A stretch of 64,000 nt of DNA, from NCBI RefSeq assembly GCF_013167455.1, contig NZ_CP038328.1. One strand, given 5' to 3'. Position numbers: made by a program. The first letter of the stretch is position 1. The number at the start of each line of letters is the position of its first letter. This DNA is from Escherichia coli O157:H7. Its GTDB lineage: Bacteria > Pseudomonadota > Gammaproteobacteria > Enterobacterales > Enterobacteriaceae. Below, piece by piece: positions 39,401 to 42,400 of this stretch.

Positions 39401-42400
39401 GCACGGCGCTCAATATTGTCTCGAACGTCCAAGCTGCCTATGCGCTCTTTGATTTCTTTAATCAGTTCTTTGTCGGTAATAGTGGTCATGCCGCGTTTCC
39501 TTCTTTCTTATTAACAATTACACCGTCATATATTTCATTAAGGTGCCCTCTCAACTCCATGCGCCTTAATGCAGACAACATGTAATCGCATTCACTTATT
39601 TCCAGTAAATGGCTTATCGTCAGGATTACCCCAACAGCAATTACCCTTGGGCCACCCATGTACTTTCCGTACTCGTTAACAACGTGAAGTAATCCCCAGC
39701 CAGGTGGTAAATCCTCAATTGAAATAATTCCCGGCTCACTAATAAAGAATCGCCAGTCGCCCATTCCAAGAGACGGATTTTTACGAAAACGCTTTTTTCT
39801 ATCTGCCAACAAGTCAGCACGAGAACATTTCGCCTCTATCAGGCATGATGCTGAATTTCTGAATCCCATAGCATCTGGCTGTTCTCCGGTACTGGTTACA
39901 GCTATAAAGCGGTCATGAAAACAAACCTTGAAACCGTTGCGCTTAAGGAACTTGTACGCAATCTGACAGAGTTCGCGGTGTGTTAACGCCATATCACTCT
40001 CCTTTGATGCGAATGCCAGCAAGCCAGTTTCTTATGCCGATATATTCAGCGTTCCTGAAACCGCTTTTTACATATATAAATGGCAAGCGAAGATTGTGAC
40101 CATTGACTGCCAGGTAGTCTTTACAACCCTGTTCGGTGAAACAGCAGGTAACGAATTCATCAATATCTTTCACAGCAACGCGCCGCCATTTTTCTGGTGG
40201 CTCTCGAAAGTTTTCATGAAGTAGCTCGAGACGACGACTATGGCGTTTATTGGCTTCATTGCCATCTTCGTCAACCCAGACAATCCGGTCATGGTCATAA
40301 TCAGCATCAACAGCGATTTCGCGCTTTTGATACACACAAAACATGGGATCTGACGTTATTCGATTGTCCTGTGTTCGAATATTTTCACCGATGATGCCAA
40401 ACGAATCTGGTGCAGATTTTGTCTGCATCTCTTCGATACGTTCAGCCATCGCAGCACACTCTTCAAAGTTGCTTAATGCTTTTCGCTCCCATTCGGCGCA
40501 TTGTTTTTCCAGTTCTGCTATGCGCTTACTTCCATCCGCGATTACTCCCTCGTAATATTCACGCTGCTCGTTGAGTTTTGATTTTGCTGCTTCAAGCTCA
40601 ACACGCAGCTTCCCAACCGTAAGCGCAATCCCCTCGTTCTCCTGGTCGCGGCGTTTGATGTATTGCTGGTTTCTTTCCCGTTCATCCAGCAGTTCCAGCA
40701 CGGTAGCCGGGTTAGCCTCTGCTATGAATTCAGCGTTTGCATAAGCCTGAGCATCTGATTCAATCAGGCAGTTAACATGACATTCCGCAATCACGCCACC
40801 GGGTTCTCCTTTCCATTTTTGGCAAACAAAAACTCCTGTTAAATTGCCGTGCTGGTTAACAGATGTATGCCCTACGATGTAGTTTCCTTTAGTTGCTTTT
40901 TCTGCCTTTTCACGCAGTGCCTGATAATTAATTTCGCTCACTTCGAACCTCTCTGTTTACTGATAAGCTCCAGATCCTCCTGGCAACTTGCACAAGTCCG
41001 ACAACCCTGAACTGCCAGGCGTCTTCGTTCATCTATCGGATCGCCACACTCACAACAATGAGTTGCGGATACAGTCTGGTAGTTCAGGCGACGCATTTTT
41101 ATTGCTGTATTGCGCTGTAATTCTTCAATTTCTGATGCTGAATCAATGATATCTGCCATCTTTCATTAATCCCTGAATTGTTGGTTAATACGCTTGAGGG
41201 TGAATGCGAACAATAAAAAAGGAGCCTGTAGCTCCCTGATGATTTTGCTTTTCATGTTCATCGCTCCTTAAAGACGCCGTTTAACATGCCGATCGCCAGA
41301 CTTAAATGAGTCGGTGTGAATCCCATTAGCGTTACCGTTTCGCGGTGCTTCTTCAGTACGCTACGGCAAATGTCATCGACGTTTTTATCCGGAAACTGCT
41401 GTCTGGCTTTTTTGATTTCAGAATTAGCCTGACGGGCAATGCTGCGAAGGGCGTTTTCCTGCTGAGGTGTCATTGAACAAGTCCCATGTCGGCAAGCATA
41501 AGCACACAGAATATGAAGCCTGCTGCCAGAAAAATGCATTCTGTTGTTGTCATGCCGGGTCTCTCTCGTTTGCTTCTGCTTTCGCCGCCATCATTTCCAG
41601 CTTTTGTGAAAGGGATGCGGCTAACGTATGAAATTCTTCGTCTGTTTCTACTGGTATTGGCACAAACCTGACTCCAATTTGAGCGAGGCTATGTGCCATC
41701 TCGATACTCGTTCTTAACTCAACGGGAGATGCTTTGTGCATACAGCTCCCCGTTTATTATTTATCTCCTCAGCCAGCCGCTGTGCTTTCAGGGGATTTCT
41801 GATAACAGAAAGGCCGGGAAATACCCAGCCTCGCTTTGTAACGGAGTAGACGAAAGTGATCGCACCTACCCGGATATTATCGTGAGGATGCTTCATCGCC
41901 ATTGCTCCCCAAATACAAAACCAATTTCAGCCAGTGCCTCGTCCATTTTTTCGATGAACTCCGGCACCATCTCGTCAAAACCCGCCATGTACTTTTCATC
42001 CCGCTCAACCACGACATAATGCAGTCCTTCACGCTTCATACGTGGGTCATAGTTGGCAAAGTACCAGGCATCTTTTCGTGTCACCCACATGCTGTACTGC
42101 ACCTGGGCCATGTAAGCCGACTTTATGGCCTCGAAACCACCGAGCCGGAACTTCATGAAATCCCGGGAGGTAAACGGGCATTTCAGCTCAAGGCCATTGC
42201 CGTCACTGCATAAACCATCGGGAGAGCAGGCGGTACGCATACTTTCGTCGCGATAGATGATCGGGGATTCAATAACATTCACGCCGGAAGTGAACTCAAA
42301 CAGGGTTCTGGCGTCGTTCTCGTACTGTTTTCCCCAGGCCAGTGCTTTAGCGTTAACTTCCGGAGCCACACCGGTGCAAACCTCGGCAAGCAGGGTGTGG

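Follow-up and report, generated by a model that had tools for sequence, protein, structure and literature searches.

A phage MmcB-like PD-(D/E)xK nuclease gene with two frameshifts in a prophage of Escherichia coli O157:H7

The locus and its two deletions

The window analysed here, a 64,000-nucleotide stretch of an Escherichia coli O157:H7 genome (contig NZ_CP038328.1 of assembly GCF_013167455.1), contains a lambdoid prophage in whose early-left operon lies an open reading frame (ORF) of 168 amino acids (aa). It runs on the minus strand from the ATG at 39990-39992 to a TGA that ends at 39486. A reading of the sequence alone (the sequence-only reading) had placed a protein at these positions and had tentatively picked out by eye a PD-(D/E)xK-like nuclease motif within it. 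The ORF and the motif both stand, but the protein is not intact: 27 internal residues, which that reading had not noticed, are scrambled by a double frameshift, and it is doubtful that the ORF encodes a working protein.

The DNA of the window was aligned to gp17 of phage TL-2011b, whose product has 171 aa, and to two O157 genomes. The aligned sequences are near-identical save for two gaps in the window, one of 4 bp and one of 5 bp, which lie 82 nt apart with the 4-bp deletion upstream (Table 1). Nine bases are removed in all, and the frame is therefore lost and then regained. Residues 107-133 (EYGKYMGGPRVIAVGVILTISHLLEIS) are read out of frame and stand in place of native residues 107-136 (GRVRKVHGWPKGNCCWGNPDDKPFTGNKQV), after which the native sequence picks up again with ECDYMLSALRRMELRGH... 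in the protein alignment. Codons 107-133 are not collinear with the family (the 171-aa form, PHROG 631/9263), and PHROG 9263 matches the product in two stretches. The native core upstream of the altered segment holds H5, E37, P39, D40, E53, K55, S57, R58, D60, D64, K67 and R70, together with G76, G78, R81, P96 and W99-G100-L101.

Errors of assembly were considered as the source of the deletions and discarded. The exact window protein (P0287) recurs on seven Logan contigs, which were built from independent public read sets; one of the contigs is common to at least 20 samples. We therefore take the allele to be real. A sister allele (P0288, with K106) was found on 18 Logan contigs. Against the window, the flanks of these contigs show at least 99.8% identity, except for one contig at 98.7%.

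Allele-specific searches of 5426 complete E. coli genomes found the intact first site in 906 genomes and the intact second site in 904. The 5-bp deletion is present in 60 genomes, where 63 of its 64 places are chromosomal and the listed examples are mostly O157; it is also carried by phage 2851, where the annotated gene product has 134 aa. The window's own 4-bp junction occurs in none of the 5426 genomes, and a sister frame-restoring junction that differs by one base (GTTAA/CGGA/AGAG) occurs in one, strain 17B6-2. The likely history, as read from these sequences, is an intact gene, then the 5-bp frameshift, then a frame-restoring 4-bp deletion. The junctions of the window and of 17B6-2 could equally reflect two independent deletions or one deletion followed by a point mutation; either way two steps are involved. 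Such a history would account for the PGAP annotation of near-identical strains, where the gene is either split or marked 'frameshifted'. In the RefSeq/PGAP annotation, 17B6-2 has a 107-aa coding sequence from an internal TTG plus a 'frameshifted' pseudogene, and FDAARGOS_293 has the N-terminal piece only (loci L001 6187-6693 of NZ_CP038414.1 and L002 2019-2197 of NZ_CP022050.2). Most of the intact-allele sites that were sampled carry no annotated feature at all.

As to the start of the ORF, a longer form of 178 aa is possible from a TTG at 40022. This start was discarded in favour of the ATG, because an AAGGAG Shine-Dalgarno sequence precedes the latter by 6 nt and because the homology to TL-2011b begins only there, just upstream of the ATG. 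The ORF had also been said to overlap the stop of the Ea22-like gene before it. It does not, since a single base (39993) parts that stop, the TGA at 39994-39996, from the ATG. The true overlap is a 4-nt ATGA at the other end (39486-39489), which the 3' end of the 168-aa ORF shares with the ORF downstream. This downstream gene is itself broken, with 44 codons before its TGA and 74 more in-frame codons after it, and PGAP flags an 'internal stop' in the same gene of the near-identical strains 17B6-2 and FDAARGOS_293. Its stop is polymorphic, as some Logan contigs with the same nuclease allele hold an intact 118-aa version.

Table 1. Features of the locus, in window coordinates; junctions are written with slashes around the missing bases.
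Feature	Position	Strand	Basis and remarks
Tyrosine integrase, start of prophage	36826-38004		ORF list
Downstream gene, pseudogene; ATG overlaps the stop of the 168-aa ORF (ATGA)	39133-39489	minus	Translation; internal TGA 39355-39357
168-aa ORF, doubly frameshifted allele of phage MmcB-like PD-(D/E)xK nuclease gene	39486-39992	minus	ORF list, DNA alignment to TL-2011b gp17, protein alignment, 7 Logan contigs
Residues 134-168, native C-terminal helices back in frame	39489-39593	minus	E134 and R144 correspond to E137 and R147 of the intact protein
5-bp deletion junction, primary frameshift	39594-39595	minus	CAGGT missing from AATAAG/CAGGT/TGAATGC; common to phage 2851 and 60 complete genomes
Residues 107-133, out of frame	39594-39674	minus	DNA and protein alignments
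4-bp deletion junction, frame restored	39674-39675	minus	GGAA or GAAG missing from GTTAAC/GGAA/GAG, directly after codon 106
Residues 1-105, native catalytic core (alpha1, beta1-beta5)	39678-39992	minus	Conservation in 96 relatives; pLDDT
PD...ExK catalytic motif, P39-D40 (39873-39878) to E53-A54-K55 (39828-39836)	39828-39878	minus	Read from sequence; aligned to Hjc 1hh1 and SPO1766
Ead/Ea22-like gene, 315 aa	39994-40941	minus	Pfam PF13935, E=9.6e-42; stop 1 nt before the ATG of the 168-aa ORF
AAGGAG ribosome-binding site (Shine-Dalgarno), within the 3' end of the Ea22-like gene	39999-40004	minus	Sequence; 6 nt to ATG
exo	41893-42573		ORF list
bet	42570-43355		ORF list

Catalytic motif, family and predicted fold

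Conservation was assessed in 96 diverse full-length relatives of 33-88% identity. The motif seen by eye proves to be that of a nuclease family: D40 (GAT, 39873-39875), E53 (39834-39836) and K55 (39828-39830) are conserved in 100, 99 and 99% of these relatives and align with the catalytic D/E/K of Hjc (PD..ExK of 1hh1) and of MmcB-like proteins (D..ECK of SPO1766), and for these reasons the motif exceeds chance. D40, D60, G78 and R81 are invariant. Conserved in at least 90% are H5, L8, L16, E37, P39, G43, E53, K55, S57, R58, F61, D64, K67, R70, G76, P96, W99, G100, L101, E137 and R147. The family also shares with MmcB-like proteins the motif S-R-x-D-F-x-x-D-x-x-K.

The product belongs to PHROG families that are all labelled 'unknown function' (phrog_9263, E=1e-88; phrog_631, E=1.7e-78; phrog_16308, E=1.4e-41), with a weak match to phrog_5429 ('DNA repair protein', E=0.0034). 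With the intact form as query, an exhaustive HMMER search at E<=0.001 returned at least 2622 clusters at 50% identity, and most of the best 150 matches listed cover residues 3-160. Profile searches, which the sequence-only reading had proposed as a check, tie this family to MmcB-like and Hjc nucleases. In hmmsearch, the family profile found 3dnx among PDB entries (SPO1766 of Ruegeria pomeroyi, MmcB-like; E=3.2e-5), and also Hjc with P-D...E-x-K exactly aligned; phmmer against PDB sequences gave chance-level matches alone (a lectin, an oxidoreductase). An hhalign comparison with 17 sequences annotated as PF06319 gave a probability of 97% and E=1.2e-10 over 60 columns, with the D, the E-x-K and S-R-x-D-F-x-x-D-x-K all in register. 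This profile-profile comparison is limited to the N-terminal catalytic half, because the PF06319 sequences retrieved, seeded from a 53-residue 3dnx fragment, were partial. Single relatives match Pfam weakly, 39 of the 96 to Hjc, the family most often matched, and 21 to MmcB-like (best E=2.9e-4).

AlphaFold2, run on an intact homologue with the family alignment, gave a model with a predicted local distance difference test score (pLDDT) of 95.6 and the canonical alpha-beta-beta-beta-alpha-beta order. D40 lies at the start of beta2, just before the strand at 41-45, and E53 and K55 at the end of beta3, the strand at 48-54. The intact model has the restriction-endonuclease core fold with D and (D/E)xK in their places, and not the unrelated fold that the sequence-only reading had named as grounds for abandoning its motif. 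It resembles the solved MmcB-like member 3dnx over the whole domain; for Hjc (PF01870), a Pfam model match combined with close structural similarity was not obtained. Can2 and Card1 are also among its structural neighbours. Native residues 107-136 make up strand beta6 (residues 108-113) and a loop. For the window protein, the model has a block-mean pLDDT of 86-96 over residues 1-100 and of 54-75 over the scrambled stretch, and it keeps the C-terminal helix.

On this evidence these phage proteins, which have a restriction-endonuclease fold, form an unnamed family that is sister to the bacterial MmcB-like (PF06319/DUF1052) DNA-repair nucleases and more distantly related to archaeal Hjc. Its sequences were already catalogued in PHROG 9263, 631 and 16308, where the hint of MmcB comes only through the weak phrog_5429 match, and searches of the literature for MmcB, DUF1052 and PF06319 found nothing on this phage family. 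The closest known system is thus MmcB-like / DUF1052 (PF06319), with 3dnx and Caulobacter MmcB as members. The phage family differs from it in several respects. The PF06319 model matches neither the window protein, even at E<=10, nor the intact homologue at E<=0.01 or 0.1, and identity to 3dnx is about 25%. The family resides on phages, prophages and phage-plasmids, in contrast to a chromosomal SOS gene, and it has conserved features of its own (H5, E37-x-P-D, G76-x-G78, R81, W99-G-L, E137 and R147). Archaeal Hjc (PF01870; 1hh1, 1gef, 2wcw) and Hje (1ob8) have the same minimal PD-(D/E)xK fold at a similar size, and P-D...E-x-K of Hjc aligns residue for residue with the phage family. In Hjc, a conserved acidic residue in helix alpha1 completes an E-D-E-K active site. 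E7 is present in the window protein and 49% conserved in the family, and the neighbouring H5 is 98% conserved.

Damage, function and competing explanations

The explanation that we favour, with moderate confidence, is that the window holds a damaged copy of the gene for a stand-alone PD-(D/E)xK nuclease of about 170 aa from a phage sister family of MmcB. That grade joins a high confidence in the family and fold assignment together with the double frameshift to a lower confidence in the biological role and in the impairment. In a Stx2c-type (Stx, Shiga toxin) prophage lineage at sbcB, the 5-bp deletion would first have frameshifted the gene and the 4-bp deletion would then have restored the frame. 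The replaced stretch takes out beta6 and a loop with G114, N119, W122, F130 and N133, which are conserved in 50-81% of relatives. Given this loss of a strand and a moderately conserved loop, the sequence and the model suggest that the 168-aa product is probably inactive or badly impaired, a crippled remnant.

Several observations weigh against this account, and they leave the claim of inactivity weak. All the family residues conserved in at least 90% of relatives are kept in the window protein; no part of the family varies more than the replaced stretch, which has the highest column entropy; the core and the C-terminal helix are still confidently modelled; and the two frame-restoring alleles, one base apart at the junction, circulate in many samples, so that the restored frame could be under selection. 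The allele might then be a functional nuclease in which the 4-bp deletion was selected to regain the C-terminal helix (E134, R143, R144), the 27 replaced residues being a tolerant surface hairpin and loop. That clean 4-bp deletions near one spot (GTTAAC^GAG in the window, GTTAA^AGAG in 17B6-2) restore the frame, each in many independent samples, fits such an alternative. We nevertheless find it doubtful. A predicted core strand and five moderately conserved residues lie in the replaced stretch, and the sequence that replaces them (VIAVGVILTISHLL) is hydrophobic and poorly modelled. A frame-restoring deletion is found in only one of the 60 complete genomes that carry the 5-bp deletion, both alleles could equally well stem from a single deletion and a later point mutation, and the break in the next gene downstream suggests relaxed selection in the region.

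Damage to this gene recurs elsewhere. Other Stx phages carry a different frameshift that yields 144-aa products (P0014, P0015, P0029), one of them from the O104:H4 strain 2009EL-2071, and phage CP-1639 matches residues 1-103 only, with an IS629 insertion annotated at the same place. The broken downstream gene, the 144-aa truncations and the IS629 in CP-1639 fit relaxed or negative selection on the gene in lysogens, where it may be dispensable or costly.

In 80 viral loci that we surveyed, the neighbours of the gene sort into 57 clusters upstream and 52 downstream, none dominant. No conserved partner gene (methylase, immunity or sensor protein) was found in these 80 loci, which argues against a restriction-modification, toxin-antitoxin or defence-operon reading. 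The neighbours that could be named were DUF551, Ea22, NinB, NinG, RusA, SSB, DUF1064, an SNF2 helicase and a primase zinc ribbon. The Red genes exo, bet and gam accompany the gene in this prophage and nin-like regions do so elsewhere; in lytic phages (Ackermannviridae, Vibrio phage MAR10) it lies beside primase, helicase or polymerase genes. Because the protein is small, has no recognition domain or conserved partner and is found among early replication and recombination genes, a structure- or damage-specific endonuclease is most likely. We thus propose that the intact family is a Mg-dependent DNA endonuclease aiding phage replication, recombination or repair, and not a sequence-specific restriction enzyme or a toxin. 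In the proposed mechanism, which follows that of other PD-(D/E)xK enzymes, Mg2+ would be bound by D40 and E53, and K55 would position or activate the attacking water that hydrolyses the phosphodiester. Three points tell against this role. Nuclease activity and substrate are putative for every member of the family; the support from context is soft, the neighbours being so variable; and hmmscan gave zero direct matches of the window protein to Pfam, NCBIfam or PADLOC models.

The last of these points, and the shortness of the D-x12-E-x-K pattern, would suit a chance match in an unrelated small protein or a non-coding remnant. This possibility is effectively ruled out, as the triad is essentially invariant across the 2622 clusters and the PDB profile search and the structural and profile-profile matches are significant. 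More substantial is the proposal that the family is an Hjc-type resolvase of Holliday junctions or branched DNA, which would act on the recombination intermediates that Red produces and be functionally analogous to RusA or Rap/NinG. Hjc is the leading weak Pfam match among the relatives and aligns with them over PD..ExK, the protein is small and without extra domains, and it shares an operon with exo, bet and gam here and nin-like regions elsewhere. RusA and Rap/NinG are likewise small accessory DNA endonucleases, encoded in the same mosaic early and nin regions in temperate phages and at times right next to the gene; they are however of unrelated folds and families, and co-occur with the phage gene rather than replacing it. 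We judge the resolvase proposal to be unlikely. A role as a prophage 'moron', a defence or toxin nuclease that serves the lysogen through abortive infection or superinfection exclusion and is often inactivated because it is costly, seems very unlikely. It would agree with the position of the gene in a non-essential early-left accessory region, with the recurrence of inactivated alleles in Stx prophages (the 5-bp deletion, the 144-aa frameshifts, IS629 in CP-1639) and with the use of PD-(D/E)xK folds in many defence effectors, Can2 and Card1 being among the structural neighbours. Yet neither the window protein nor the intact protein matches any defence-protein model of PADLOC-DB, no sensor, immunity or methylase partner is conserved alongside the gene, relatives occur in strictly lytic phages by replication genes, and the nearest relatives are repair-type MmcB-like proteins, not effector domains.

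Within the favoured role of a nuclease for replication, recombination or repair, a more specific idea may be drawn by analogy. Stx phages are classically induced with mitomycin C. The intact family might be a phage-borne counterpart of MmcB, a nuclease expressed early that acts on phage DNA with crosslinks or other damage and thereby lets an SOS-induced prophage replicate in the wake of the inducing damage, and the two 4-bp deletions might then be independent compensatory events selected to recover activity. We hold this to be quite improbable as a whole. For the nearest known family, the functional information comes from one review, which describes Caulobacter MmcB as an SOS-regulated PD-(D/E)XK endonuclease that protects against mitomycin C and cisplatin (PMC9578287).

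Prophage setting, distribution and related forms

The prophage adjoins sbcB in a near-identical E. coli O157:H7 genome. Over 15.8 kb it is essentially identical to Stx2c phage 2851 (100.0%, as rounded by the search), and phage Stx2a_WGPS8 shares about 98% identity over 90% of a 24-kb query, in a match that includes stx2A. On these grounds, positions 36826-64000 of the window very probably contain a Shiga-toxin prophage.

About one sixth of complete E. coli genomes have an intact copy of the gene, with Stx phages and plasmids of about 64-105 kb among its carriers, and assignment to MmcB-like PD-(D/E)xK nucleases gives a testable annotation to a 'hypothetical protein' that is very common and has no curated model. 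As its middle is out of frame, the copy in the window is unfit as an experimental reference, and the intact 171-aa form (e.g. TL-2011b gp17) is preferable for cloning. The 5-bp frameshift followed by a 4-bp restoring deletion is also a clear small case of an intact-looking ORF that encodes partly non-native sequence. For phage genomicists there is nothing surprising in this, and the advance is modest: what is new is the membership of this damaged allele in a known kind of enzyme.

Plasmids carry about 245 of the intact copies found among complete E. coli genomes, so the gene is not limited to integrated lambdoid prophages. The seven plasmids sampled are of 64-105 kb, mostly 94-105 kb. A size of 94-105 kb is typical of phage-plasmids.

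In several temperate phages, a DUF551 protein is encoded directly after the nuclease gene or one gene further on (L003 3513-4073, L010 3516-4358, window 38786-39136). DUF551 is the commonest nameable neighbour on both sides, yet the association is loose, at 3-4 of about 55 neighbour clusters.

Finally, in Ackermannviridae and some Vibrio phages the homology covers only the N-terminal ~105 residues, that is, the catalytic core. The C-terminal half of these proteins, which are about 200 aa long, is different (L006 2980-3597, L007 2998-3597, L009 2995-3597), and their sequences suggest domain swapping around a shared nuclease core.

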